Shown here: piece by piece, positions 21,217-35,251 of the stretch
How the letters are laid out: every line of letters starts with the position of its first letter
Position numbering within the stretch: position 1 is the stretch's first letter
NCBI GenBank assembly: GCA_002506485.1
Contig: DAXQ01000076.1
Span: 1-50,965, forward strand
Length of the DNA stretch: 50,965 nucleotides
Direction: 5' to 3'
From: Euryarchaeota archaeon UBA136
GTDB taxonomy: Archaea; Thermoplasmatota; Poseidoniia; MGIII; CG-Epi1
Position numbers and translations under genes: made by a program
The notes under the pieces: generated by a model
Told to the model about the DNA's origin: nothing
Database searches by the model: none
Seen by the model: the letters and a program-made list of their open reading frames with translations, nothing else

Positions 21217-21576
21217 GTGTTGGCACACGAGTATATCCCTATAGGGATTTTTGCACTTATTGCACTCACATTTCCTGTGCTGACCTTCTTTATCGGAAGG
21301 TTCTTTCGGCCTCATAATGACAATGCTCTCAAAAATTCAACTTATGAGTGTGGAGAGGTTCCTAGAGGCGAAGCTCATATTCAGTTTCATTTTCAGTACT
21401 ATATGTTTGCTATACTGTTTGTCATTTTTGATTTAGTAGTAGTTTTTCTAGTCTTGTGGGTTCAAGTATATCTTGATTTGGAGGTATCAGCTAAAGTTGT
21501 AATGTTGTTGTTTCTCCTGCTGACCTTGCTGGGTCTGTGGTACGCTTTTAGAAAAGAGGATGTAATCTGGATATGA
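21217..21576 (+). CDS. nuoA: NADH-quinone oxidoreductase subunit A
   Basis: 119 aa with 3 TM helices and the conserved YECGE loop. Confidence 0.9.
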   Translation: MLAHEYIPIGIFALIALTFPVLTFFIGRFFRPHNDNALKNSTYECGEVPRGEAHIQFHFQYYMFAILFVIFDLVVVFLVLWVQVYLDLEVSAKVVMLLFLLLTLLGLWYAFRKEDVIWI

Positions 21577-22214
21577 GTTCTAAGAAAGTACGTGGCAATC
21601 CTGGTCTTAGAAGAGGTGTGGGTTCTAAAACAACTGATTTAGACGAAATAATGGAAGACCCTCCTGCAGGAGATTGGCTTACTCTTCGTTCAGATCAACT
21701 GTTAGAATGGATAGATAACGCTGTTTACAATGTTGCTGAAACCACTGGAATGCGCGAAGTCGTCAATCGAGTAACTAGACCTATCTTCAATTATGGGCAA
21801 AGATTCTCTCCTCATCCGCTTCACTTTGGTATAATGTGTTGCGCTATTGAGATGGGTCAGGCCTCTGCACCGGACCATGATATAGACCGACTTGGTCTGG
21901 TTTACCGTTCTTCCCCAAGGCAGTGTGATGTGCTAATTGTCAATGGGCCTGTTTGTGAAAAACTGCGCCCTAAATTGAAGACACTTTATGAGCAAATGCC
22001 GGAACCCAAATGGGTTATTGCAATGGGCGAATGTGCAATATCAGGAGGTCCCTACTGGGATTCCTACTCTGTTGTAGCAGGTGCAGATACATTCATCCCT
22101 GTTGATGTATATATTCCAGGATGTCCGGTTAGACCTGAAGCTTTGATGCATGGTTTTCTGACTTTGCAAAAGAAGATCAGAGAAAAGGAACCAGGCATGT
22201 TCTTGAGACGTTAA
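21573..22214 (+). CDS. nuoB: NADH-quinone oxidoreductase subunit B (N2 cluster subunit)
   Basis: 213 aa. The N2 cluster ligands are present: tandem [14 protein letters not shown] and GCPVRPE. There is a 4-nt overlap with nuoA. Confidence 0.95.
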
Positions 22215-22216
22215 GT

Positions 22217-22696
22217 ATGGAAATCAAGGAGTTAATGCAAGAGTTATCAGCCCTTAAGGGAGTTAGCAACGCTTCAATGATTAGGGATAATGTAGTCAAA
22301 TTGGATATTGATAAGAATTCATCCAAAGAGTTTTTTACCAAATTGAGGGATGACTTTGGCTTTGAACATTGTTCATTGATAACTGCAATCGATAATCAAC
22401 CAGAATTTGAACTGGTTTATCATTTTACATCTGTAAACAAGTCCGTTACTGTTGGATCCACTGACATGTCTGTAATGATGGAGGCACATGTATTTCTTGA
22501 ACGGGATACACCTACCATAGAATCAATATCTGATTTATGGGGTGGTGCTAATTGGCATGAGAGAGAAGCTTTTGATCTGATGGGAATTTACTTTGTAGGC
22601 CATCCAGATTTGCGTCGTGTATTGTTACCAGAAGGTTTTGCTGGTCATCCGTTAAGGAAGGATTACGTGTATGAGATACACGAGGAGGAGTGGTAA
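22217..22696 (+). CDS. nuoC: NADH-quinone oxidoreductase subunit C
   Basis: 159 aa. It has the NuoC/30-kDa signature [24 protein letters not shown]. Confidence 0.9.
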
Positions 22697-23790
22697 TGGC
22701 TGAGATGTGGATTAGTATGGGCCCGCAGCATCCAATGACCCATGGTCTCTGGACATTGAAGGTCAAGGTAGATGGTGAAACAATAACTGATGCAGATCCT
22801 GAATTAGGCTATCTCCACCGTTCAGTCGAGAAAATGGGCGAACGTCGTAAATATTTTATGAATACCACTTTGACGGATCGCCTTTGTTATGCTAGTTCTA
22901 CTACTTGGACACACAACTACGTTCTTACAGTCGAAGAATTAATGAATGTTGAAGTACCTGAAAGAGCAAAATACATACGTACGATTATGCTAGAACTTCA
23001 GAGATTAGCTTCTCATTTAATGTGGGCAGGAGCCTATATGCCTGATTTAGGACATATCACTGGAGCCCTTTATTTCTGGAGAGATCGTGAATTGTTCCTG
23101 AACCTTCTGGAGGTTCCAAGTGGAAGTCGTCTTCTCTACAATTATATTCGAATTGGTGGGGTGAAAAGGGACCTGCCAGATGGTTTTGTTGAAAAAACCG
23201 AGAGGGTCTTCAAACTATTTGAAAAACGACTGGATGAATATGCTGATCTTTTTGAAAATTCTAAGATTTTTCGCATGCGCACTGAGGATGTTGGTAATTT
23301 CACTGCAGCGCAGGCCCAGAATCTTGGAATAACTGGCCCCAATATGAGAGGATGTGGGACCAAATTTGATTTGAGAAAAAATGACCCCTATGAGATTTAT
23401 GAAGAAATAGACTGGGCTATTCAAACAAGAGAGGCAGGGCCTGGCTATAGTGATTGTTTCAGCCGATATATGGTTCGTATAGATGAGATGAAGGAATCAA
23501 TTCGGATAATTCGTGATTGTTTCAAAAAGATGCCCAAGGGACCAACCTTGGCCTCAGCTATTCCTGTTCGGGCTCAGGGAGAAGCTTTCCGTAGAACAGA
23601 GGATTCTAGGGGAGAGGCTCTGATGTATGTGGTTGGTGACGGAACAGATCGTCCCTATCGGTGGAAAATCAAAAGCCCGATGTTTACCACAATTTCAGCC
23701 TGCCCTCACTATCTCAAAGGGTACAAGCTTGCAGATATTCCCGCAATCATGGGTAGTATTGATATTTGTATAGGAGAGACTGACAAATGA
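22696..23790 (+). CDS. nuoD: NADH-quinone oxidoreductase subunit D
   Basis: It has GPQHPMTHG and LGYLHRSVEKM and ends IGETDK. I prefer ATG 22696 (TAATG overlap with the nuoC stop, GAGGAGGAG SD 6-14 nt upstream) over the track's GTG at 22690. Confidence 0.95.
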   Translation: MAEMWISMGPQHPMTHGLWTLKVKVDGETITDADPELGYLHRSVEKMGERRKYFMNTTLTDRLCYASSTTWTHNYVLTVEELMNVEVPERAKYIRTIMLELQRLASHLMWAGAYMPDLGHITGALYFWRDRELFLNLLEVPSGSRLLYNYIRIGGVKRDLPDGFVEKTERVFKLFEKRLDEYADLFENSKIFRMRTEDVGNFTAAQAQNLGITGPNMRGCGTKFDLRKNDPYEIYEEIDWAIQTREAGPGYSDCFSRYMVRIDEMKESIRIIRDCFKKMPKGPTLASAIPVRAQGEAFRRTEDSRGEALMYVVGDGTDRPYRWKIKSPMFTTISACPHYLKGYKLADIPAIMGSIDICIGETDK

Positions 23791-25016
23791 CCTTATTCGA
23801 TGCATGTAGAATTATGGCTGAATGGACAGTAAAGGTTCTCATACCGGTCTTTGAGTTTCAAGAAGGTCTTTTTCCTCCTTTCAGTAATCCTGCAGGTTGG
23901 GTCGCGGATTGGTTAGCAACAGAGGGGGGGCTGGATACAATGGCATGGTTTTATGCAGTCAACATCGCTTTTATGATAGGAATGACCAATCTGATTCTGG
24001 TTATCCATCTAGAGAGAAAAGTTGCTGCTAGAATTCAAGATCGTAGAGGCCCAATGCTATCTTTTAGATCTCTTCGTGAGTTAGGCGAGGACTTATCTGG
24101 TCAGGCACCTTCCTGGAAATTTAAGAAGAATTATAGTGGTATAGGGATTTTACAGAATCTAGCTGATGGAATCAAGGCCATTACCAAGGAATTAATTGTT
24201 CCGGCCAAGGCAGATAAATTTCTATTCACTATGGGGCCTATCATATTCATATCTTCATCTGTGTTTTTATTGGCTCTATTTCCTCTGTCAGATAGATTCG
24301 CAGCCTCTTCGGCACCGGCTGGCTTGATGGTGATTATGGCCGCTTTTTCCATAGCACCAATAGGGGTTTTGACCTCAGGTTGGGCGTCCAATAACAAATA
24401 TTCCATGATTGGAGGCATGCGTTCCGCGGCTCAGTTAATGTCGTATGAGATTCCTTTGCTTTTGAGCATGGCGGGTGTGTTTCTGTTAGCAGGGTCCTTT
24501 GATCCGGTTGTAATTGTGGAACAGCAACAAGCCTCTACCTGGTTTTTTGGTTTACCAATGTGGAATTTTATTCCCCAATTCATTGGTTTTGCTGTTTTCA
24601 TGATTTGTATCTTAGCTGAAGTTGAGCGCGTTCCATTCGATTTGCCGGAAGCCGAAGCTGAATTGGTTGAAGGCTGGACAACAGAGTATAGTGGAATTCG
24701 ATATATGTTGTTCCTAGCCGCAGAATATATCAGAGGATTTGCAGGTGCCGCGGTTGCGACTATCTTGTTTTTAGGTGGCTGGGCAGGTCCTTGGCCAGTA
24801 CCTCCCGAAATCTGGTTTTTGCTTAAGGTATATCTAATTCTTTTATTTTGGATTTTTATCCGCTGGTCAGTGCCCCGCATAAGAACCGACCAGATTCTTG
24901 TTCTGGGCTGGAAAAAGTTGCTACCTTTGTCTCTGATAAATCTCCTTATCGTTATATTTATGGTTGAGATTTACCCATATTTCACAGAGATAGTTAATCT
25001 TCCGGAGGTATTCTGA
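23787..25016 (+). CDS. nuoH: NADH-quinone oxidoreductase subunit H (longer than usual, at 409 aa)
   Basis: It has ERKVAARIQDRRGP, LQNLADGIK and EAEAELVEGWTTEYSG. About 45 extra N-terminal residues are present, plus an insert between RRGP and GILQ. Confidence 0.93.
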   Translation: MTLFDACRIMAEWTVKVLIPVFEFQEGLFPPFSNPAGWVADWLATEGGLDTMAWFYAVNIAFMIGMTNLILVIHLERKVAARIQDRRGPMLSFRSLRELGEDLSGQAPSWKFKKNYSGIGILQNLADGIKAITKELIVPAKADKFLFTMGPIIFISSSVFLLALFPLSDRFAASSAPAGLMVIMAAFSIAPIGVLTSGWASNNKYSMIGGMRSAAQLMSYEIPLLLSMAGVFLLAGSFDPVVIVEQQQASTWFFGLPMWNFIPQFIGFAVFMICILAEVERVPFDLPEAEAELVEGWTTEYSGIRYMLFLAAEYIRGFAGAAVATILFLGGWAGPWPVPPEIWFLLKVYLILLFWIFIRWSVPRIRTDQILVLGWKKLLPLSLINLLIVIFMVEIYPYFTEIVNLPEVF

Positions 25017-25792
25017 TGAGTGAAAAAAGTGAACTAGGAATTATGGATATTTTCGTTAATCCAATGAAAGTAACGATGAAGCAATTTTTCAAATCAACAT
25101 TTGGAAAACCAACCACAGTAATGTATCCTTTGGAAAGAAGGGATCCACCACCAACCTACAGAGGAATGAATGCCGTAATCTGGGATCTTTGTATTGGTTG
25201 TGGGATCTGTGCCGAGGTCTGCCCTAACAGATGTTTGAAGATGAAGCCTGTTGAATTATCGGACGATGAACAAGACAGGGCGTGGTACGGTTCACATCTG
25301 GCCAAACGGAAGCATAAACCCGAAAGGCCTGCAATAAATTTCGGCCACTGTATGTTTTGTGGATTCTGTGAGGATTATTGTCCGACCGGTGCTATGACCA
25401 TGACGGATTTTTACGAATTGGCAGATACTAATCGTGAAGGATTGATTTATCCTGCCCGGTCAATGAAAGTCGACCTCGAAGATCTTCCTCAACTTCCCCT
25501 TACGAATTATATGATGGAATCTCCCGTACTGGATGTTGATCCCTGTATTGGATGTAGTAAATGTGTGGACAATTGCCCTACCAATTGTATTATCATGGAT
25601 GTAGGGCCTCAGGATAAGACGCTTAAAAGTGGCAAGGTCCGGAATGTGGAAAATCCATATTTTGACTATACTATTTGTATTGGCTGTTCGACCTGTGTCA
25701 AGGTTTGTCCAGCAGATTGCCTGCATATGGAACCAATAAGCAACTCAAGTTCAAGTGGACTGACTACTGAGGAATCCCCGACCGAGGCCTGA
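25016..25792 (+). CDS. nuoI: NADH-quinone oxidoreductase subunit I with an additional C-terminal 2x[4Fe-4S] ferredoxin domain
   Basis: 258 aa. There are four CxxCxxCxxxCP motifs: CIGCGICAEVCP, CMFCGFCEDYCP, CIGCSKCVDNCP and CIGCSTCVKVCP. The SD GGAGGT lies at 25004-25009, and the start overlaps the nuoH stop as TGATG. Confidence 0.93.
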   Translation: MSEKSELGIMDIFVNPMKVTMKQFFKSTFGKPTTVMYPLERRDPPPTYRGMNAVIWDLCIGCGICAEVCPNRCLKMKPVELSDDEQDRAWYGSHLAKRKHKPERPAINFGHCMFCGFCEDYCPTGAMTMTDFYELADTNREGLIYPARSMKVDLEDLPQLPLTNYMMESPVLDVDPCIGCSKCVDNCPTNCIIMDVGPQDKTLKSGKVRNVENPYFDYTICIGCSTCVKVCPADCLHMEPISNSSSSGLTTEESPTEA

Positions 25793-25796
25793 TAGT

Positions 25797-26060
25797 TTGG
25801 ATTTAGCGATTCTCATTTTCTGGGGTCTGGCGAGTTTAATCCTAGCTTCAGCCTGGGCCGTTGTAAATGGGAATGATATTGTTCATGCCGTTGTCTGGTT
25901 GGCAACTGTTTTCTTGTTGACAGCATGCCTATTCATTTTGGCCGACGCTGAATTCTTGGCAGTTATCCAGGTCTTGGTCTATGTGGGTGCTATTTCCGTG
26001 GTCATAATATTTGGAATCATGCTCACTAAGAGAACTCTAAAAGGTGGTGAAGATGTCTAG
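25797..26060 (+). CDS. nuoJ: NADH-quinone oxidoreductase subunit J, N-terminal part (TM1-3; nuoJ1)
   Basis: 87 aa with a TTG start. The NuoJ/ND6 core FLAVIQVLVYVGAISVVIIFGIML is present. Confidence 0.8.
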   Translation: MDLAILIFWGLASLILASAWAVVNGNDIVHAVVWLATVFLLTACLFILADAEFLAVIQVLVYVGAISVVIIFGIMLTKRTLKGGEDV

Positions 26061-26826
26061 TCGGACTATTATCTGGGTGAGGGATGCCTTAGTGATTACC
26101 TTATCGCTTTATATCGTTTTCTCAATTGCCATGGCTCCTTGGAATAATTTGAAGTCTGAGGAACCCTTGTCTATGACCTGTGAAACGGGGTGTGCTCCTG
26201 TGATAAATTACCCAGAGGATGGTTACTATCACCACAAGGATTCAATTGTGTTCGAATGGAATTCAGTCTCGGTGGGGTATCGATTTACAGTTCTAAATAG
26301 TACGGGACATGTCTTCCATGATGAAAATCTTACTGGTATTGCATCATCTACAACCAATAGATTGCCAGTCGGTGATTATACCTCATTCGTTTATTACAAG
26401 GGTATAGTCGGCTCTTTACTGGGAGATAATGAATTTCTTCTTAGTGATGAGGATCATTCTCTGGCTTCTTCTTCAAAAATTACTGTGGTCTGGGCCCCAG
26501 TTGGGATTACTTATGGAATTGAGATTCGAGAGCACAAAGCAACAGAGATACGGATTGTTCATCAAGCCGAGGACTTGGCTCAGACATCATATGAGTTCCA
26601 GGATTTTGATAATGGTAAAACTTATTCTTGGTCTGTCTATGCCGTTGATTCCATGGGTTTTGTCTCGGAGTCGTCCAATGCAAGGGAATTGAATATAGAT
26701 ACAACCAAATTTTTAGCTTATGAACTGTTCAATAATTGGGAGGTTCCTTTCATACTGTTGGGAATCTTGATGGTTGTTGCGTTACAGGCAGGCGTTTTCC
26801 TTGCCAGGGAGGAAACTAATGATTGA
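26053..26826 (+). CDS. nuoJ: NADH-quinone oxidoreductase subunit J, C-terminal part (nuoJ2) with a ~190-aa tandem Ig/Fn3-like insertion
   Basis: ATG 26053 is preceded by AGGTGGTGA (the track ORF starts at GTG 26044). There is an N-terminal TM and a C-terminal TM (WEVPFILLGILMVVALQAGVFLA, which is NuoJ TM5-like). Between them are two beta-rich repeats (IVFEWNSVSVGYRF...GDYTSFVYY and ITVVWAPVGITYGI...KTYSWSVYA). Confidence 0.65.
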   Translation: MSSRTIIWVRDALVITLSLYIVFSIAMAPWNNLKSEEPLSMTCETGCAPVINYPEDGYYHHKDSIVFEWNSVSVGYRFTVLNSTGHVFHDENLTGIASSTTNRLPVGDYTSFVYYKGIVGSLLGDNEFLLSDEDHSLASSSKITVVWAPVGITYGIEIREHKATEIRIVHQAEDLAQTSYEFQDFDNGKTYSWSVYAVDSMGFVSESSNARELNIDTTKFLAYELFNNWEVPFILLGILMVVALQAGVFLAREETND

Positions 26827-27121
26827 TCCAATTCATTTTGTGGTATTTTCTTCAATTCTGATGTTGATCGGGGCTTATGGTGTGATTCGCAACAAGAATG
26901 CAATAGTGGTCCTTATGTCTATTGAAATAATGTTGACCGCAGCAAACATCAATTTTGTTGCATTCTCCAGTTATTATCATGATCTAACTGGCCAGGTAGC
27001 GGTACTGTTTGTTACAACCATAGCCGCGGCAGAAGTGGCAATAGGTTTGGCAATACTTTTGAGCCTTTTCAAACAGAGAGACACCATAGAACTTGATTTG
27101 TTGAATACGTTGAGGTGGTAG
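26819..27121 (+). CDS. nuoK: NADH-quinone oxidoreductase subunit K
   Basis: 100 aa from ATG 26819, with SD GGGAGGAA upstream. It has 3 TM helices and the NuoK pattern GAYGVIRNKNAIVVLMSIEIMLTAAN with conserved Glu. The track's longer ORF (from 26774) overlaps nuoJ2. Confidence 0.9.
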   Translation: MIDPIHFVVFSSILMLIGAYGVIRNKNAIVVLMSIEIMLTAANINFVAFSSYYHDLTGQVAVLFVTTIAAAEVAIGLAILLSLFKQRDTIELDLLNTLRW

Positions 27122-27122
27122 A

Positions 27123-29303
27123 TTGAGCGAAAAAGACCCCGACACATCAAATATGGACTTATTGGTAACTATCTTTGGCAGTCTGGCTTTGGCACTAGGG
27201 TTACTATTTTTCTTGGTTCAGGAGGAGGATACTAGTCCAGTCAATGTTGCCTGGTTAATCCCTGTCTTTTCGATTGTTTCATTTGTTCTTATCTTGCTTT
27301 TGGGAAGTTATGATCCCAGAAGAGGCGGTTCAATAGCTGTGATAGGTGTTGGTTTTTCCTCTGTATTTTCATTGGGGGTTGCCTATGATGTCCTGATTAA
27401 TGATGTTACCCGTGGGGGATATATTGAGTCTACGAGAATCTGGTTTGGAGGCCAAACATTCGCGTTTGAATTTGGTACTTACATAGATGGTCTAGCTGGT
27501 TTGCTTCTGTTAGTCGTTGGTTTCGTTTCCTATTTGGTAGTTGTATTTTCTCTAGGGTATATGGTGAAAGAGGGTGACCGCCAAGTAAGATATTTTGCAG
27601 AGATAGCTCTATTTGTGGGCGTGATGTTAGGTTTAGTAGTTGCCAATTCATTTTTATTGATGTTTATATTTTGGGAACTAGTCGGCGTCTGTTCCTATTT
27701 ATTAATTGGATTTTGGTATGAAAAACCATCAGCGGCTTCAGCTGCGAAGAAGGCATTTATCGTTACAAGAGTGGGCGATGTATTTCTGCTTCTTGGCCTT
27801 GTAATCTTATTCAATACTTTTGGTACTCTGAGATATTCGGAGTTGTTCAGTAACCCTGAGCTTCTATCCGAAAATGCTGAGGCAGTAAAGTGGGCGACTT
27901 TGTGTATATTTGGTGGTGCCGTAGGCAAGTCGGCACAATTTCCATTGCATGTTTGGCTTCCAGATGCGATGGAAGGTCCTACTACCGTTTCAGCACTTAT
28001 TCATGCGGCAACTATGGTGAAGGCTGGCGTTTTCCTAGTTGCTCGATCATATCCTCTGATTGTTCACAGTCCTGATACTGCGATATATATTGCTGTTACG
28101 GGAGGTGTTACAGCATTCATAGCTGCTAGTATGGCTATGGTGATGTATGATATCAAGAGAGTTCTGGCCTATTCAACGATTTCTCAATTAGGGTACATGT
28201 TCCTTGGATTGGGTGCGGGTGCTTGGGCTGTCTGGCATGCAACCGAAAATGGGCTGGAAGTCCATGCGCAGGGTTACACTGCTGGTTTATTCCATTTGAT
28301 GAATCATGCGTTTTTCAAGGCATTACTATTCTTGGGTTCAGGTGCAGTGATACATGCAGTCCATACACAGGATATGAGAGAGATGGGAGGATTACGCAAG
28401 GCTATGCCAATCACTTCTACAGCTATGGGTCTTGGTGTCTTGTCTATTGCAGGATTACCTTTCTTTTCTGGATTCTGGTCAAAAGATGAAATTCTTGAGG
28501 CAGTTCACCATAATTGGGATGCTGAAGGGATTTTTGGGGCTTTGTGGTGGTTGGGATTGCTTACTGCAGCTATGACGGCTTTCTATATGACTAGATTGTG
28601 GATGATGACCTTCAGTGGCCCTCCTTCCCATGAGGTAGAAGAGGTAATTCCTTCTGACGATCATTCGGATTCAGGCAATTGGGAGATACTCAAGAAAGAA
28701 GTCAAGATACAGGCACATGAGGCTCCACGGGTCATGACCATACCTCTGATGATTTTAGCCTTTTTAGCTGTCTTTTCAGGATTCGTGGTCTTTCTTGGAG
28801 ATGGTTTTGGTTCGGTGGTCTTCTATGGCGCACATCATTCTTCAGAGGGACCTATTCAATGGGGTCTTCTTGATCATATTTTATTATCGACCTTAACTCA
28901 CTTATCGGTCCTTGTGGGTCTTACAGGAGTAATTCTTGGTTATCTCTTCTACAAGAGAGGGGACGATGGCCAGACTCCATTCTCGACGGCTTTCGTATCT
29001 GATAGCGTTGTCACAAGCAATTTGCATACATTCTTGTCAAATCGCATGTACATGGCGAGATTATTTGATTGGTTTGGTATGAGAACTTGGGATACCTTGG
29101 CCATGGTCTGTGACTGGTTTGATCGTAAGATTATTGACGGGATTGTCAATGGAATTGCTTCCATTACACAAATCTTAAGTGGAGAGGTGAGAAAGTTGAC
29201 TTCAGGTTTTACGGGACATTATGCCTCTCTTACTATAGGTGGCCTTGGTGCTTTGGTAGTAGTTACCCGTGTGGTATTTCCATTGATGGGGTGGTCGTTA
29301 TGA
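27123..29303 (+). CDS. nuoL: NADH-quinone oxidoreductase subunit L
   Basis: 726 aa with a TTG start 6 nt after GAGGTGGT. It has the antiporter-like core (WELVGVCSYLLIGFW, PLHVWLPDAMEGPTTVSALIHAATMV) and a long C-terminal extension typical of NuoL. Confidence 0.93.
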   Translation: MSEKDPDTSNMDLLVTIFGSLALALGLLFFLVQEEDTSPVNVAWLIPVFSIVSFVLILLLGSYDPRRGGSIAVIGVGFSSVFSLGVAYDVLINDVTRGGYIESTRIWFGGQTFAFEFGTYIDGLAGLLLLVVGFVSYLVVVFSLGYMVKEGDRQVRYFAEIALFVGVMLGLVVANSFLLMFIFWELVGVCSYLLIGFWYEKPSAASAAKKAFIVTRVGDVFLLLGLVILFNTFGTLRYSELFSNPELLSENAEAVKWATLCIFGGAVGKSAQFPLHVWLPDAMEGPTTVSALIHAATMVKAGVFLVARSYPLIVHSPDTAIYIAVTGGVTAFIAASMAMVMYDIKRVLAYSTISQLGYMFLGLGAGAWAVWHATENGLEVHAQGYTAGLFHLMNHAFFKALLFLGSGAVIHAVHTQDMREMGGLRKAMPITSTAMGLGVLSIAGLPFFSGFWSKDEILEAVHHNWDAEGIFGALWWLGLLTAAMTAFYMTRLWMMTFSGPPSHEVEEVIPSDDHSDSGNWEILKKEVKIQAHEAPRVMTIPLMILAFLAVFSGFVVFLGDGFGSVVFYGAHHSSEGPIQWGLLDHILLSTLTHLSVLVGLTGVILGYLFYKRGDDGQTPFSTAFVSDSVVTSNLHTFLSNRMYMARLFDWFGMRTWDTLAMVCDWFDRKIIDGIVNGIASITQILSGEVRKLTSGFTGHYASLTIGGLGALVVVTRVVFPLMGWSL

Positions 29304-31168
29304 GATGGTTCTTATTTCTCCTTCTGGTTGTTGCACTTGTTCCTGCTGCGTCAGCTGAAAATCACACAGTGATTGTTACCCAGGCTGATGATTCCAGCTC
29401 ATACTTTTTTGATCCTGAGGTATTGACGGTAAACATTGGAGATACAGTGGAATTTGTTTGGGGCAATGGTTCTCACAATGTAGCTCAGGTTTCCGATTCA
29501 GAATCAAAGACCTATGGTTCAGGGTTCTATTCAGGTGTGCCAGAAGTGGGTGGCAATTGGGTACTGCCAGCTGAGTATACAATGCAGGATGGAACTTTGT
29601 ATTACGTTTGTCAGCCTCATGCGCTGATGGGTATGAGTGGATCAATAATTGTAGGTACTGGAACTCCTCCTCTTCCTGATATTGCAATGGAATTTGGTGA
29701 CTTCCCATGGCTTTCCTATCTTCTGGTATTTCCCCTTATCGGTTCTCTTTGGATTCTTGGTTTCAGAAACAACCCCTCTGCTCCAAGGATAATTGCTCTG
29801 TTCACTACATTATTCACGCTTGGACTATCCATTATAATATTTGTAAAGGCTGGTTCAGGAAGTGGTTTCAGATTAATGGAGGAATATGTATGGGCACCTA
29901 AACTGGGAGTGTCTCTACTACTGGGAGTTGATGGTCTCAGCTCACCGATGGTTCTGTTAACGGGAATCATTACCCCTCTCGCGGTCTTATTTGCTTGGCA
30001 TGAAAAGGAAAAACCAGCCTTATTCTTTGCTTTACTATTGGTAATGCAGACGGCCCTATTCGGTGTTTTCATCACTCTGGATTATTTTGTGTTCTATATC
30101 TTCTGGGAAGTGGTGCTGATTCCAATGTTCTTTTTGATTGCTATTTGGGGTGGCGATAACAAACGATATGCTTCAATCAAGTTCATTATTTACACATTCA
30201 CTGCTTCGGTTGTGATGTTAGTTGGATTTATGGCCCTTTATTTTGAAGCGGGCGTCAATTCCTTTTCGATGATTGAAATTGCCGAGGCTAACGCAGGTTT
30301 CAACAGGGACTTCCAGATCTGGGTTTTTGCGGCATTGTTCATCGGTTTCGCGGTCAAGATACCTTCAGTTCCTTGGCATACTTGGTTACCAGATGCCCAT
30401 GTCGAGGCTCCAACTGCGGGGTCAATTCTTTTAGCTGGAGTCATGCTGAAAATGGGACTTTATGGTTTAATGCGGGCAGCAATCCCGGTTCTACCTTTAG
30501 GTGCCGAGTATTTTGTACCAATAATGGTCGTTTTAGCTATTGTTTCTATATTGTATGGAGCAGCCTTAAGTCTGGGTCAGGAGGACCTGAAAAAATTAGT
30601 AGCATATTCTAGTGTTTCCCATATGGGTGTTGCACTGTTAGGAGTTGCAACGATGACTGAGCTGGGTTTTGCCGGTGCGGTTTTTATGATGTTTGCACAT
30701 GGTATTCTTAGCCCAGCAATGTTCATGGTTGCGGGAGTAATGTTGCATCAAGTTGGCACTCGTGATATTCCAAAACTTGGAGGTCTAGCTGGCTATCAAC
30801 CTACTACTGCTGGAGTTTTTGTTGTTATTTTCTTGGGCAGTCTTGGTCTTCCAGGTATGGCTGTTTTTGTTGCAGAATTGGCAGTTTTTATTGCTTTTTT
30901 CCAGTCTCATGGTTATTGGTTGATACTTCCAATTTTTGGAATGGTTCTGACAGCGGGTTATCATTTATGGGCTTTACAGCGCTCTTTGTTTGGTCCCGAC
31001 AGTGAGCAGATAGAAATGAATCAAGTTCACGAAGCTCCATGGTATGAGTTTTATCCTTTATTGGTAATCGTTATCCTTGCCGCTTTTTTCGGTATTTTCC
31101 CAAGTTATTTGATGGATCCTATAACTGTTGCATGTTATGATATTCTGGCTTTTATGGGGGAAGTATAG
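29300..31168 (+). CDS. nuoM: cupredoxin (type-1 copper) domain fused to NADH-quinone oxidoreductase subunit M
   Basis: ATG 29300 overlaps the nuoL stop as ATGA. A signal peptide (MRWFLFLLLVVALVPAASA) is followed by a cupredoxin with ligands in GSHNV and YYVCQPHALMGM. A Pro-rich linker leads to a complete NuoM (WHTWLPDAHVEAPTAGSILLAGVMLK) with no intervening stop codon. Confidence 0.9.
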   Translation: MRWFLFLLLVVALVPAASAENHTVIVTQADDSSSYFFDPEVLTVNIGDTVEFVWGNGSHNVAQVSDSESKTYGSGFYSGVPEVGGNWVLPAEYTMQDGTLYYVCQPHALMGMSGSIIVGTGTPPLPDIAMEFGDFPWLSYLLVFPLIGSLWILGFRNNPSAPRIIALFTTLFTLGLSIIIFVKAGSGSGFRLMEEYVWAPKLGVSLLLGVDGLSSPMVLLTGIITPLAVLFAWHEKEKPALFFALLLVMQTALFGVFITLDYFVFYIFWEVVLIPMFFLIAIWGGDNKRYASIKFIIYTFTASVVMLVGFMALYFEAGVNSFSMIEIAEANAGFNRDFQIWVFAALFIGFAVKIPSVPWHTWLPDAHVEAPTAGSILLAGVMLKMGLYGLMRAAIPVLPLGAEYFVPIMVVLAIVSILYGAALSLGQEDLKKLVAYSSVSHMGVALLGVATMTELGFAGAVFMMFAHGILSPAMFMVAGVMLHQVGTRDIPKLGGLAGYQPTTAGVFVVIFLGSLGLPGMAVFVAELAVFIAFFQSHGYWLILPIFGMVLTAGYHLWALQRSLFGPDSEQIEMNQVHEAPWYEFYPLLVIVILAAFFGIFPSYLMDPITVACYDILAFMGEV

Positions 31169-32661
31169 TGGATAGTTCTCTTCTTTTCTTGCCTGAACTA
31201 TTGTTGGTAGCCAGTATCATGGCAATCCCGGCTTTGTATATTGCTACTGAGAATAACAAATCTTATTCGATTTGCGCTAATATGACTTTGGCATTGTCAT
31301 TCTTGTTGCTTATATTATTCTGGTTTTATCCGGATGAAGTTTCATTTGAAAAGAATTCGTCAGTTTATATTATTTATAGCCATTTTAAATTGGATACCTT
31401 CTCACAATTATTCAAAATAATATTTGTATTGACAGCTTTGACGGTTTCTGTTCTGAGTGGTTCTTATTTTGAGGAAGATGAGCCTCATCAGGCAGAGTAC
31501 TATACTCTACTTCTTTCTAGTACTTTAGGTATGATGTTGGTTGCTTCTGCGACTGATTTCTTGACACTTTTCTTAGGAATAGAGATATCGGCTTTCAGCA
31601 GTTATGCTATGGTTGCTTTCAGAAAACAGGATGATAAGTCTACGGAAGCAGGGGCCAAATACTTTCTGATAGGTGCTTTTTCTTCGGCACTTACACTTTA
31701 CGGAATATCCTTGCTTTATGCCCTTACTGGTTCGATTACTTTCGAAGGTATGCGTTCATTTTTTACAGGTCTTAATAATGAAGTTGTTTCCGGGAATTTT
31801 GATGAGGTCATTTTTATTTCTAGTTTGTTCATACTTGCTGGTTTAGGCTTCAAGATCGCAGTTGTTCCCTTTCACGCCTGGGCACCTGATGTGTACCAGG
31901 GCGCTCCAACTCCTGTAACGACCCTTCTTGCAGCTGGAAGTAAGGCTATGGGGTTCGTAGCCTTGTTCAGAGTATTCTTGTTCACAATGGAAGCTGTATC
32001 TGATGAGTGGAAGTTAATTCTTGGAATTATAGCTCTTGCTTCAATGACAATTGGTAATCTGGCAGCTATTACTCAGGATGATATTGGTCGGATGCTAGCT
32101 TATTCCTCAATTGCTCAGGCAGGGTACATTCTGATCGCAGTTCCTGCTCTTACCGATGACGCAGTCTCCGGGGCCATTGCCCATACCATGGTTCATGCAT
32201 TCATGAAAGGGGGAGCTTTTGTCATAGTTGCAGGAGTAGGTGCAGCCGGGTTGGGATATAGCCTGGATTCTTACAAAGGTCTGGCTGCACGTTCACAATT
32301 ATTGGCATTGTCCATGACTGTTTGTCTTTTGTCCCTAGTTGGAATCCCTCCGTTTGCCGGATTCATTAGTAAATTTCTGCTATTCTATGGGACTTTGCAA
32401 GCTGGTCTTTCGGGAGATACTTGGATTATTGCATTGGTAATTGCCGGTGTTCTGAATTCTGCACTTTCACTGTATTATTATCTTAAAGTTATTCGGTTCA
32501 TGTATCTTTATGATGCTGTCGGTTCCAAGGATATTGAGTTTAGCAATGCGGTTCGTTATATTTCGTTCCTAACTGTGCTTTTCTTGGCTATTATTCTGCC
32601 CTTGTTCTGGCAGTCCCTCTTTGAAATCTGCAAGGAGGCTACTGTAGCTCTGATGACATGA
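31168..32661 (+). CDS. nuoN: NADH-quinone oxidoreductase subunit N
   Basis: 497 aa with a GTG start overlapping the nuoM stop by 1 nt. The antiporter-like core is present (PFHAWAPDVYQGAPTPVTTLLAAGSK). Confidence 0.9.
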   Translation: MDSSLLFLPELLLVASIMAIPALYIATENNKSYSICANMTLALSFLLLILFWFYPDEVSFEKNSSVYIIYSHFKLDTFSQLFKIIFVLTALTVSVLSGSYFEEDEPHQAEYYTLLLSSTLGMMLVASATDFLTLFLGIEISAFSSYAMVAFRKQDDKSTEAGAKYFLIGAFSSALTLYGISLLYALTGSITFEGMRSFFTGLNNEVVSGNFDEVIFISSLFILAGLGFKIAVVPFHAWAPDVYQGAPTPVTTLLAAGSKAMGFVALFRVFLFTMEAVSDEWKLILGIIALASMTIGNLAAITQDDIGRMLAYSSIAQAGYILIAVPALTDDAVSGAIAHTMVHAFMKGGAFVIVAGVGAAGLGYSLDSYKGLAARSQLLALSMTVCLLSLVGIPPFAGFISKFLLFYGTLQAGLSGDTWIIALVIAGVLNSALSLYYYLKVIRFMYLYDAVGSKDIEFSNAVRYISFLTVLFLAIILPLFWQSLFEICKEATVALMT

Positions 32662-32918
32662 TTGACAAGGATAATATTCAATATAGACAATTTAGTAAAT
32701 TGTGGGCAGGGGAGACACCTAAAGGCGTCAACATCACCAAGAGAGATGTTTTCCGTTCCAAGATGAAAAATTCATGTCAGCAGGAAGGGATTGAATTTAG
32801 TGAAATAAATGCGTTTAGAATTTTCTCGGGAGAGATTAAAGAATTAGGTTCAGACACTCAGAAGGTAGGAGAGATTAAGGTAACTAAACCACCTAGAAGA
32901 CATCTAAGAGGAATTTAA
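32658..32918 (+). CDS. hypothetical soluble 86-aa protein translationally coupled to nuoN
   Basis: It overlaps the nuoN stop as ATGA and fills the whole space to the convergent gene. It is basic with no TM helix, and I recognise no family. Confidence 0.35.
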   Translation: MIDKDNIQYRQFSKLWAGETPKGVNITKRDVFRSKMKNSCQQEGIEFSEINAFRIFSGEIKELGSDTQKVGEIKVTKPPRRHLRGI

Positions 32919-33892
32919 TTTCGGTCACTTACAATTAGTTCATTTGCAAAGGATATAGGTACCTGTTCTAGTAGAATTTTGGTTGATGAATCTGGAACCT
33001 CTTCCAAAAATTTCCGGGACATTTCTTGCCATGGGGCAATCAATTCTTCAAAGATATTCTGAGCATCGCTTGTTTTCACGTTCTTTATAATTTCACCAGC
33101 ATTTCCAGTCTCTATAAATTTATCAATAGATGGTTTGTACCCGCTATAACGAGTTAATCTTGTGACTGGTAAAGTTGGTATTCCAAGGGCTAAGTCTCCT
33201 ACAGGTGTCTTGGTAATTAATGAATTCATAAGATCAAGATAGTCATCAGTTATCTGATATATAATTCCTACAGTTTCCCCGAATTTATACATTGGTAATG
33301 CCAAGTCGGTTTGAGGCGAGATTAATGCCCCTAATTCAGCAGCTGTACTGTATAGTGCTCCAGTCTTTCTTTTTATTCTATGAAGATACACAGATTCACT
33401 GTAATTTTCTTTATCTGTAAAGTCAGCAATCGCCCCTTCAGTCAAATTCCTGGCACATATTGCTAGAGATTTTCCTGTGGCTAATGAGATGGCCCCATGT
33501 AGGGACCCCGTTGCAACCATCAGATCCGCGACTAAAATGGCTGTCCTTGGGCCCAGTTCTTTCCACAATGATGGAGCCTCACGCCTAAATTTATCTCCAT
33601 CTAACCAATCATCATGTATCAAGGTTCCACAATGAATCAATTCCAAGGCCATTCCACATTCGAATGCCAAATGGGCATCGCCACCTAAACAATCGGATAC
33701 TAAACGGCAAAGTACGGGTCGTAATTGCTTTCCTTGCCCTACTCCTTTTTCTATTAGAGGTGCTATATCCTTTGATTCCTTGCTGATTTCTCTTTTCAGA
33801 TGTCTTTGGAACTCAACTCTAACTTCTTCGAAATAATCGTTTAAATTCTGCGAGACTGTCAGATTTTCCTGTAATTTTATTGTTTCTTTCAT
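32915..33892 (-). CDS. trans-polyprenyl diphosphate synthase (GGPP or longer-chain)
   Basis: 325 aa. It has the first Asp-rich motif LIHDDWLDGD and the second ITDDYLD. Confidence 0.88.
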   Translation of the reverse strand: MKETIKLQENLTVSQNLNDYFEEVRVEFQRHLKREISKESKDIAPLIEKGVGQGKQLRPVLCRLVSDCLGGDAHLAFECGMALELIHCGTLIHDDWLDGDKFRREAPSLWKELGPRTAILVADLMVATGSLHGAISLATGKSLAICARNLTEGAIADFTDKENYSESVYLHRIKRKTGALYSTAAELGALISPQTDLALPMYKFGETVGIIYQITDDYLDLMNSLITKTPVGDLALGIPTLPVTRLTRYSGYKPSIDKFIETGNAGEIIKNVKTSDAQNIFEELIAPWQEMSRKFLEEVPDSSTKILLEQVPISFANELIVSDRN

Positions 33893-33894
33893 AG

Positions 33895-35172
33895 TTAAAT
33901 GTATTCAATACCAATTATCAGTAATGTCCCAGTTAGGGCATGTATACCAATGGTTCCCCAGTTTGCACCGGCCAATTCTCGGGTATTATAGCTGTTTATT
34001 ACTTGATATGAATAATAGAGAGCCACAGGTAATCCTAGTAATGAAAGAAGGGCCCCTTCCTCTACGATATTGTATTCGAATAATGCATATATTGAGGAGA
34101 ATGCTGCAAGCATTAGGATAAGGTACCCCCAACTGGATTTTTCTAGTCCTAGAACTACAACCAAGTGATGTTTTCCTGCAATTTCGTCTGATTTGCTATC
34201 AGGAAACTGATTAATCCAAAGTATTGCTGTCGTTAGTATTCCAAATGGTATTCCAAATAGAAATGCCTCCCATGAATGTATTCCAGACATTGCATAGATA
34301 GCTCCCATAGTCATCAGTGGGCCATAATTCAAACCAATCAGTAATTCTCCAATTCCTTTACGTGCTACTAATCTTAGAGGATATCCCATATAGAAATATC
34401 CCGAAAACGCTCCCGCAAGTCCGTAGTAAAGTAATTCCACTTTATTATCAAGCATAATTACTATTCCTGATAAACCAGCTAAAGCTAGAAAAGAAGTTGC
34501 CAAACGGAAAAGTTGTTTCTCAGTTATCAATCCCAGTTCGATAGCTCTGCTGCCTCCTGAGAGTTGTAAGAAATAGTCGTTGTTGATCTGATCAGTTCCA
34601 CTGGTCCAGTCAAAATAATCATTGTATGTATTGGCAGCCAGATGTAGAAAAGATCCACCCATAAACACCAATCCAAAGGTTAACCAATCCATCTCGATAA
34701 GTCCTTTCTGAAGACCCCAGACCACGCTAGCAATTATTGGAATCCAGGTGGCACTAAGGAAAGGCAATCTTGTTATGGCAACGATTGAGATAAATCGGGT
34801 GAGCAAGGATGTTTTGGGCATAGTGTCCATGGGAGAAACATTCTTCAGTTCTTTTGTGCGCCCACAGTAACCGATATGCATTCCGTTTTTCATTGTTGCC
34901 GTACATGTAAATTCAGCAGCAAATTGCGTTCCATCTTTTCTTATGAAGGTGGTCTTTGTTGAATATCCTTCCCTATTCTTTCTTGCTTCTTTTAACCACT
35001 TAGCAACATGGCCTAGCACCACCATACCAGGTGAGAATAGAGAAACTCTCTTCTTACCTATGATTTCATTGGCCGTGTACCCAAACATTATTTCGGCGCT
35101 TTTGTTGAAGGTTTCTATTCTACCCTCTATATCACAGGTTATTACACTGGTTACGTCATCTGATTCTGACAT
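33895..35172 (-). CDS. PAS domain fused to a UbiA-superfamily prenyltransferase (MenA-like, 1,4-dihydroxy-2-naphthoate polyprenyltransferase)
   Basis: The N-terminal about 110 aa are PAS-like (ITCDIEGRIETFNKSAEIMFGYTANEIIGKKRVSLFSP...KDGTQF). They are followed by about 8 TM helices with NTYNDYFDWTSGTD (the MenA-type NxxxDxxxD region). The track ORF starts at TTG 35226. I prefer ATG 35170-35172 (MSESDD...), which lies downstream of a TATA-like TTTATATAC. Confidence 0.8.
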   Translation of the reverse strand: MSESDDVTSVITCDIEGRIETFNKSAEIMFGYTANEIIGKKRVSLFSPGMVVLGHVAKWLKEARKNREGYSTKTTFIRKDGTQFAAEFTCTATMKNGMHIGYCGRTKELKNVSPMDTMPKTSLLTRFISIVAITRLPFLSATWIPIIASVVWGLQKGLIEMDWLTFGLVFMGGSFLHLAANTYNDYFDWTSGTDQINNDYFLQLSGGSRAIELGLITEKQLFRLATSFLALAGLSGIVIMLDNKVELLYYGLAGAFSGYFYMGYPLRLVARKGIGELLIGLNYGPLMTMGAIYAMSGIHSWEAFLFGIPFGILTTAILWINQFPDSKSDEIAGKHHLVVVLGLEKSSWGYLILMLAAFSSIYALFEYNIVEEGALLSLLGLPVALYYSYQVINSYNTRELAGANWGTIGIHALTGTLLIIGIEYI

Positions 35173-35251
35173 TAGGTACCTTTTAATTTCCTTATTCAAC
35201 TTCATTAGGTATAGTATATAAAACAATCATTATTATTGCCCAATTCAATGA

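Follow-up and report, generated by a model that had tools for sequence, protein, structure and literature searches.

Results

A NuoI subunit with four cluster motifs in a headless complex I operon

The stretch of DNA analysed here, which we call the window, is the 50,965-nt contig DAXQ01000076.1 of Euryarchaeota archaeon UBA136, a member of Marine Group III (MGIII; Poseidoniia, Thermoplasmatota). It carries a nuo operon for an 11-subunit “headless” complex I, in which nuoI is the sixth gene (order nuoH–nuoI–nuoJ) and shares one base of its ATG with the nuoH stop codon (TGATG). Family searches of the open reading frames (ORFs) of the window revealed no homologs of NuoE, NuoF or NuoG, either in the operon or anywhere else in the 50,965 bases, as a preliminary description made from the DNA letters had stated for the complex. 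No CxxC NiFe-binding motifs were found in NuoD, and NuoB has the N2-type ligands (tandem CC89-90, C154, C184). These features mark the predicted Q-module as that of a quinone-reducing complex I and not of a hydrogenase.

The NuoI protein carries twice the usual set of cluster motifs (Table 1). A scan of all six reading frames of the window finds the pattern CxxCxxCxxxCP exactly four times, each time in nuoI, and Pfam Fer4 matches four separate stretches of the protein (E = 3e-24). The preliminary description had reported these four motifs, and both the observation and its coordinates proved right: position 25544 is the codon of C177 and position 25792 the last base of the stop codon. Its spacings needed revision. 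Motifs 1 and 2 are separated by 41 aa (53 start to start), motifs 2 and 3 by 53 aa instead of a linker of about 45 aa, and motifs 3 and 4, which do form a second pair, by 32 aa (44 start to start) and not about 37 aa. The Ser/Thr/Glu-rich tail described behind the last motif is present (ISNSSSSGLTTEESPTEA); among relatives its length ranges from 1 to 93 aa and its composition is variable. Position 25463 is the codon of M150, an internal methionine that is replaced by leucine in the relatives P0003 and P0004. We considered an internal translation start at this codon and rejected it, since M150 is not conserved and has no upstream ribosome-binding site.

The first part of the protein is a regular NuoI. 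TIGR01971 (NuoI) matches residues 24-147 with 138.4 bits (cutoff 113.05), and the YPLE..PPTYRG segment of the NuoI N-terminus is present as YPLERRDPPPTYRG at residues 37-50. All NuoI equivalog models stay under their cutoffs, e.g. NF004537 with 128.8 bits versus 163. In the connector, residues 131 to ~150 correspond to the usual C-terminal segment of NuoI, and the true linker extends from ~150 to 172 (..LPLTNYMMESPVLD); R140 and P170 are nearly invariant.

Table 1. Location of the nuo operon and of the elements of its nuoI gene in the window (nucleotide positions of the forward strand; residues of the NuoI protein).
Feature	Residues	Position	Strand	Evidence
nuoA-B-C-D-H-I-J-J2-K-L-M-N operon		21217..32661	+	NCBIfam and Pfam matches per gene
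nuoI gene, 258 aa, four [4Fe-4S] motifs		25016..25792	+	ORF and motif scan; TIGR01971
Canonical NuoI core, N6a/N6b-type ferredoxin fold	24-147	25085..25456	+	TIGR01971, Foldseek, dN/dS 0.026
Motif 1, CIGCGICAEVCP	59-70 (C59, C62, C65, C69)	25190-25225	+	Motif scan
Motif 2, CMFCGFCEDYCP	112-123 (C112, C115, C118, C122)	25349-25384	+	Motif scan
Conserved connector	131-172	25406..25531	+	dN/dS 0.062; pLDDT 81-94
Added 2x[4Fe-4S] ferredoxin domain	173-240	25532..25735	+	Pfam Fer4; dN/dS 0.043; pLDDT 86-96
Motif 3, CIGCSKCVDNCP	177-188 (C177, C180, C183, C187)	25544-25579	+	Motif scan
Beta-hairpin between motifs 3 and 4	192-216	25589..25663	+	DSSP strands of model
Hairpin tip	200-211	25613-25648	+	Relatives place extra redox modules here
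Motif 4, CIGCSTCVKVCP	221-232 (C221, C224, C227, C231)	25676-25711	+	Motif scan
Disordered variable Ser/Thr/Glu-rich tail	241-258	25736..25789	+	dN/dS 0.26; pLDDT <50

The fusion is fixed in MGIII and under purifying selection

We compared the gene across 38 MGIII genome loci with 76-94% protein identity, whose record titles include “Marine Group III euryarchaeote CG-Epi1” and “Candidatus Poseidoniales archaeon MGIII”. One locus is cut by a contig end. All of the 37 complete loci have a single stop-free frame with the four motifs and no stop between the two halves, so that the earlier claim of one polypeptide stands, and a metagenome scan added 78 further MGIII loci with a continuous four-motif NuoI frame. 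All 19 cysteines of the protein are invariant across the 38 MGIII sequences. Pairwise Nei–Gojobori ratios of non-synonymous to synonymous substitution rates (dN/dS), calculated by region, are given in Table 1; the value for the added domain is close to that of the NuoI core, and the highest value is that of the tail. Together, these data confirm that the fusion is real, fixed in MGIII and under purifying selection.

The fusion was also detected in distant relatives (loci L039, L041, L043, L044 and L046). We looked among the MGIII loci and the database entries that match the C-terminal half for an ortholog in which the module forms a separate ferredoxin gene, and found none. Five entries comprise the C-terminal half alone (P0028, P0044, P0061, P0065 and P0152). 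Their starts fall within the C-terminal segment of the NuoI core (“MTMTDFYELAD...”), and they therefore represent truncated gene calls and not free ferredoxin genes.

The added domain is a generic two-cluster ferredoxin fold

When the added domain was searched alone, NuoI models ranked on top with 40-41.5 bits, followed by PsaC, RnfB, NdhI and HgcB. The preliminary description had suggested pyruvate:ferredoxin oxidoreductase (PFOR) as a possible electron source, a link that the matches do not bear out: the best match is NuoI, and an identity with PorD/KorD (TIGR02179) was rejected, as the added domain alone reaches 36.5 bits versus a cutoff of 60.05. The 67.5 bits of PorD_KorD for the whole protein are a sum over stretches of both halves. 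Moreover, no POR/KOR domains were found among the window ORFs with Pfam matches, and there is no por/kor gene nearby. Judged by its profile matches, the added domain has an ordinary two-cluster ferredoxin fold that shows no particular tie to PFOR.

The two halves of the protein align collinearly with 27% identity over 73 aa. An origin of the added domain by internal duplication of the NuoI ferredoxin core would fit this alignment but is not proven by it, because any two 2x[4Fe-4S] domains align about as well. In sequence searches of the PDB, the N-terminal half matches NuoI-family chains, with 6u8y_N of MBS as the best, and the C-terminal half matches MvhB and the repeats of the FwdF polyferredoxin. 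Neither sequence nor Foldseek searches of the PDB retrieved a solved chain with both halves. A number of EhbL-like four-cluster proteins (P0113, P0199, P0209, P0219, P0222 and P0235) were excluded from the relatives, since they lack the N-terminal signature of NuoI.

An AlphaFold model built from a 43-sequence alignment reached a mean predicted local distance difference test score (pLDDT) of 83.8 and a predicted template modelling score (pTM) of 0.71; an earlier run with 10 sequences was too poor to be used (pLDDT 51.6). Linker and added domain are modelled with confidence (Table 1), and values below 50 are confined to residues 1-3, 32-37 and 244-258. The added domain has a long beta-hairpin, with DSSP strands at E192-202 and E208-216. 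Its mean net charge across the family is +2.2, and the linker is acidic; such a basic hairpin would suit the docking of acidic ferredoxins. The top Foldseek matches are the NuoI chains 7p63_I, 8e9g_I and 4hea_9, which cover 115-160 columns. FwdF spans both halves, though poorly, with a root-mean-square deviation of ~24 Å and a query TM-score (TMq) of 0.22. Since no PDB chain superposes on both halves, the modelled arrangement of the two domains is one for which we find no solved counterpart.

A separate feature of the MGIII proteins is an insertion of 14-18 residues in the NuoI core between motifs 1 and 2 (residues ~79-101, window 25250-25320), for which two short helices are predicted. P0013, P0029, P0031, P0032, P0036 and P0040 share it, and it is absent from Methanomassiliicoccales and from the solved homolog 6u8y_N.

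Four-cluster NuoI proteins are widespread in Thermoplasmatota

An exhaustive HMMER search of 1.84 billion representatives returned 24 proteins at E < 1e-30. At least 20 clusters at 50% identity share the NuoI core, the linker and the hairpin-bearing 2x[4Fe-4S] domain. We aligned 43 relatives that share 28-96% identity with the window protein; 15 of the 16 ligand cysteines do not vary at all, and the remaining one, C180, occurs in at least 90% of the sequences. Wherever the gene context could be seen (L039, L041, L043, L044, L046, P0029 and P0036), the gene lies next to nuoH in an operon that has no nuoEFG. By its core, linker, hairpin domain, cysteines and context, the window protein belongs to the four-cluster NuoI/FpoI group that we define here.

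All named carriers are Thermoplasmatota: MGIII, Methanomassiliicoccaceae, Candidatus Methanomethylophilaceae, Candidatus Methanoplasma, “Thermoplasmata archaeon” and “Thermoplasmatota archaeon”. With a Methanomassiliicoccaceae query, 114 of 115 Methanomassiliicoccales matches have four motifs and a length of 229-262 aa; the exception is a fragment. As far as motif content tells, the four-cluster form is the rule in Methanomassiliicoccales and neither MGIII-specific nor peculiar to this genome. In NCBI records the relatives carry only the name “4Fe-4S binding protein”, probably because their scores stay under the NuoI equivalog cutoffs. This name may cause automated reconstructions of metabolism to miss subunit I.

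Relatives carry additional redox modules at the hairpin

Several relatives have additional domains at the tip of the beta-hairpin. The most elaborate one is P0026, a NuoI of 719 aa encoded between nuoH and nuoJ in a nuoA-B-C-D-H-I-J-J2-K-L cluster (L046, 7802-9961). Its identity with the window protein is 62-64% for residues 12-199 (62% in BLASTP) and 70% for residues 212-241; in place of the hairpin tip (window residues 200-211), P0026 contains an insert of ~480 residues. This insert consists of Fer4_20 (PF14691) and Pyr_redox_2 (PF07992), matches families of the NADPH-dependent glutamate synthase/GltD type (PRK12771, 463 bits; TIGR01316, 369 bits) and shows the dinucleotide-binding motifs GSGPAG and GGGNSAMD. 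The ORF is continuous, and its GC content of 0.58-0.68 is uniform over both junctions. A distance tree built on the shared columns places P0026 as the sister of P0009 (69.5% identity) and the pair as sister to MGIII; as P0009 has no insert, the insertion in P0026 is derived. The domain matches identify P0026 as a predicted NAD(P)H flavoprotein wired into complex I via the added ferredoxin domain, and it may represent an alternative, covalently attached N-module. Electrons would pass from flavin adenine dinucleotide (FAD) through the two Fer4_20 clusters, the two added clusters and the two NuoI clusters to N2, i.e. through seven clusters. This is the same number as in the main chain of canonical complex I. 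A second NuoI with a flavoprotein insert was not found; our metagenome scan yielded the 78 ordinary MGIII NuoI and an unrelated flavoprotein (L050).

Furthermore, relatives of 302-327 aa with five or six motifs are encoded in 11-subunit operons (P0014 at L041, 10001-10918, and P0175-P0186). In these forms an extra two-cluster ferredoxin module is nested in the same hairpin. The flanks of L041 are syntenic with a Methanomassiliicoccaceae metagenome-assembled genome (MAG). In P0030 (514 aa), a third ferredoxin domain follows in tandem instead, and the protein has an N-terminal extension of ~110 aa.

A related pairing occurs in a different type of complex. The protein P0081 (616 aa; L047, 8001-9851, GCA_001999555.1) belongs to PRK13984/NF010590 with 1195 bits versus a cutoff of 946. 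It closes an Mrp/Mbx-type cluster of MrpF, MrpG, MbhD and MbhE, followed by NuoK-, L-, H-, B-, C- and D-like genes, which suggests an NAD(P)H-linked complex of the Mbx type.

Discussion

A proposed built-in electron-entry adaptor

Our comparison revealed a fused ferredoxin domain that accompanies NuoI in headless complexes from marine plankton to methanogens. We propose, with a probability of roughly 0.6, that this domain is the built-in electron-entry adaptor of a complex I that lacks NuoEFG. Starting at the exposed NuoI cluster, it would lengthen the Fe-S wire towards the outside. A low-potential donor, most probably soluble ferredoxin in its reduced form or a ferredoxin-type oxidoreductase that docks there, would deliver electrons to the far end of the domain near the basic, solvent-facing hairpin, and these would pass via the two added clusters and the two NuoI clusters to N2 on NuoB and on to quinone, thereby driving proton pumping. 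What we infer in this scheme is the way in which electrons flow, the nature of their donor and a spacing of all four clusters that permits electron transfer.

The preliminary description had already proposed a dedicated electron-input extension, with PFOR as one source. The input part has gained real comparative support, because relatives plug redox modules, namely ferredoxin domains and a GltD-type flavoprotein, into the same hairpin; the PFOR part has not. Moreover, oxidation of reduced ferredoxin has been reported for the headless Fpo complex of Methanomassiliicoccus luminyensis (Kroninger 2019, cited in PMC7374477).

Several points weigh against the adaptor role. For MGIII the complex is known here from its genes, with the cluster content of NuoI predicted from motifs, and our structural model is that of a monomer without the neighbouring subunits. 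The flavoprotein-insert form stands on a single 12.7-kb contig (ENA ERZ23498983; sample SAMN10231891). The Methanomassiliicoccales carriers that we saw are MAGs and entries with family-level names, and M. luminyensis itself is a putative carrier. In addition, the window encodes a pyruvate dehydrogenase E1, and a ferredoxin-reducing 2-oxoacid oxidoreductase was not found in it. Finally, the 11-subunit complexes of cyanobacteria and Desulfitobacterium work without such a domain (PMC11238625), and it is therefore not a general requirement.

Alternative roles of the added domain

A variant that we consider unlikely also assigns an input role to the domain and differs in the donor alone. According to it, the domain is the dock of a specific soluble dehydrogenase encoded elsewhere, which would make the complex NAD(P)H- or substrate-specific and not a general ferredoxin oxidase. 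Such a dehydrogenase could be an NAD(P)H flavoprotein related to GltD, NfnB or SudA, an F420H2-oxidising protein of the FpoF/FqoF kind or a 2-oxoacid:ferredoxin oxidoreductase. P0026, with its GltD-type flavoprotein covalently in this domain, fits such a dock, as does the same pairing in the PRK13984 proteins of Mbx-type complexes. Furthermore, the E1 encoded in the window is of the NADH-producing pyruvate dehydrogenase type, and NAD(P)H may be the main reductant. However, no conserved partner gene accompanies the operon in MGIII or at the other loci, the resemblance to PorD/KorD is generic and under cutoff, and ferredoxin is the substrate reported for M. luminyensis membranes in the source cited above.

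The opposite direction of flow seems about as improbable as the specific dock, and an output role is less likely than an input role. Here the domain would be an electron exit or acceptor dock, for HdrD in Methanomassiliicoccales and for HdrD/GlcF-like proteins elsewhere. Electron transfer from the Fpo-like complex to HdrD has been proposed in Methanomassiliicoccales (PMC7374477, PMC6147122), whose FpoI proteins carry the added domain, and a gene for an HdrD/GlcF-like protein of 385 aa (Fer4_8 and CCG; L041, 1195-2352, minus strand) lies ~4 kb upstream of a six-cluster operon. Against this, the domain is equally conserved in MGIII, where the Q-module is of the quinone type and no CCG/HdrD-like protein was found in the window. 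An exit at the distal end would also bypass N2 and the quinone site and would thus not drive the pump, and P0026 carries as its insert an NAD(P)H flavoprotein, a kind of module that usually donates electrons.

We regard a purely structural function as still less probable. In a headless complex the distal NuoI cluster would be exposed to solvent, and MGIII live in oxic water; the domain could thus cap or stabilise the arm at the position of NuoG or shield the NuoI cluster from O2, with clusters that are structural or sensing, and folding needs can also keep cysteine ligands. However, the domain is conserved in the strictly anaerobic Methanomassiliicoccales, relatives add clusters or a flavoprotein, which fits a wire and not a cap, and the purifying selection on the domain matches that on the catalytic core. 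An artefact by frameshift, misassembly or wrong gene calling that joined NuoI to a downstream ferredoxin gene is refuted for practical purposes by the continuous frame in the 37 genome and 78 metagenome loci, and the short database entries that match one half, its sole support, are truncated calls of a protein whose linker is conserved and under selection.

A possible socket for input modules

Going beyond the entry-adaptor role, the ferredoxin domain could be a modular “socket” that replaces the NuoEFG head and whose hairpin takes lineage-specific input modules, an extension that we put forward tentatively and with clearly less confidence than the adaptor role itself. In most lineages the hairpin would hold nothing and free ferredoxin would be used, in some it would hold a two-cluster ferredoxin, and in at least one a GltD-type flavoprotein. 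The predicted seven-cluster chain of P0026 from FAD to quinone would then have arisen separately from the canonical N-module.

The electron donor of the 11-subunit complex I, which most archaea and many bacteria have, is an acknowledged open question (PMC11238625). If the socket idea is true, it would provide a concrete and testable answer for Thermoplasmatota, and the abundant MGIII of the ocean and methanogens of gut and rumen would share an undescribed electron feed into complex I; Methanomassiliicoccales inhabit the guts of humans and other animals (PMC4153887). The conserved fused module sits on the very subunit that is expected to receive electrons, from marine plankton to methanogens, the P0026 variant yields a structural hypothesis for electron entry, and Methanomassiliicoccus represents a cultured carrier order in which it can be tested.

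Comparison with known systems

Residues ~1-150 of the window protein match the canonical NuoI/Nqo9/TYKY/FpoI/NdhI family, with the NuoI chains of E. coli, Mycobacterium, Thermus, NDH-1 and MBS as best matches, and the gene has the same position in the operon. However, canonical NuoI proteins have ~130-200 aa and two clusters, whereas the window protein, with 258 aa and four motifs, lies outside this size range. Another close system is the headless Fpo of Methanomassiliicoccales, an 11-subunit complex reported to oxidise ferredoxin (Lang 2015 and Kroninger 2019, both cited in PMC7374477). Its 11-gene operon is the same, down to an fpoJ in two parts (fpoJ N and fpoJ C; PMC4153887, where WP_019176178.1 is listed for the FpoI of M. 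luminyensis), and its FpoI has the same four-cluster architecture with 31-41% identity to the window protein. In contrast to MGIII, these organisms are anaerobic methanogens with HdrD as the proposed acceptor instead of quinone, and they have neither the enlarged NuoJ2 of MGIII nor its 14-18 additional residues in the NuoI core.

In the NF010590/PRK13984 proteins, a NuoI-family subunit is covalently joined to a GltD-like module for electron input or exchange. Residues 24-153 of the window protein match NF010590 with 101 bits (cutoff 946), which reflects the NuoI-like part only, and the protein is no member of this family. It has no flavoprotein, whereas PRK13984 proteins have no second classical ferredoxin domain and carry Fer4_20 directly after the NuoI-like part. 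They occur in Mbx/MBS-like and not in Nuo-type complexes, and the insert of P0026 sits at a different place. Mbx homologs of Thermotogae were reportedly discussed by Schut and colleagues in 2013 as possible ferredoxin:NAD(P) oxidoreductases.

Extra [4Fe-4S] modules likewise extend the wire from a NuoI-like subunit in HycB of formate hydrogenlyase, EhaP/Q, EhbK/L, MvhB and FwdF. However, these polyferredoxins and ferredoxin-type subunits of group-4 hydrogenase relatives are separate polypeptides, whereas the module in the window is fused to NuoI. With two ferredoxin domains, the first of which is NuoI, the window protein also falls short of the 6-14 tandem Fer4 units of polyferredoxins (Vhu_polyferre, 35 bits versus 600). 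In photosynthetic NDH-1, the ferredoxin dock is formed by the extra small subunits NdhS, NdhV and NdhO, and ferredoxin is a separate protein. This NDH-1 of cyanobacteria and chloroplasts is a headless relative to which ferredoxin delivers electrons at NdhI (cited for Asgard complexes in 10.1101/2024.07.04.601786, discussed in PMC11238625); unlike there, a ferredoxin-fold domain forms part of NuoI itself in the window.

NuoI, the wire-extending ferredoxin modules of group-4 hydrogenase relatives and the NuoI::GltD fusions of Mbx-type clusters are thus already known. In the literature that we searched, including the headless Fpo papers, we found no description of a four-cluster NuoI/FpoI, although an earlier mention elsewhere is possible. 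The fused four-cluster NuoI that is widespread in Thermoplasmatota and the hairpin socket appear to be undescribed.

Other features of the operon and its surroundings

The operon of MGIII has further peculiarities. NuoJ is encoded by two genes (window 25797-26060 and 26044-26826, plus strand). In NuoJ2 (260 aa), two transmembrane helices are separated by an insert of ~170-190 aa that weakly matches fn3 (PF00041, E = 1e-4); complex I membrane subunits do not usually carry an Ig/fn3-like domain. NuoJ2 has this enlarged form in all MGIII loci (246-275 aa) and measures 385 aa in L046, whereas it is short (~80-140 aa) in L039, L041 and L044. Relative to their family models, three subunits encoded on the plus strand have N-terminal extensions: ~55 aa in NuoB (window 21573-22214), ~115 aa in NuoH (409 aa in total; 23787-25016) and ~135 aa in NuoM (625 aa in total; 29291-31168). 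The operon of P0013, a relative with 42% identity, encodes four antiporter-like subunits of 695, 503, 498 and 497 aa (L039, 9795-16389), i.e. one NuoM/N-type subunit above the usual number.

The pyruvate dehydrogenase E1 of the window (6202-8862, minus strand) is a bacterial-type, AceE-like protein of 886 aa in an archaeal genome (PDH_E1_M, E = 1e-91). Its gene stands between the thermosome and deoxyhypusine synthase genes and has no adjacent E2 or E3. The genes that come next after nuoN, on the minus strand (32915-35226), encode a polyprenyl synthase and a fusion of a PAS domain with a UbiA prenyltransferase. L041 and L044 likewise have a polyprenyl synthase gene behind their nuo/fpo operons, which suggests a conserved link of the complex to isoprenoid quinone or lipid synthesis.

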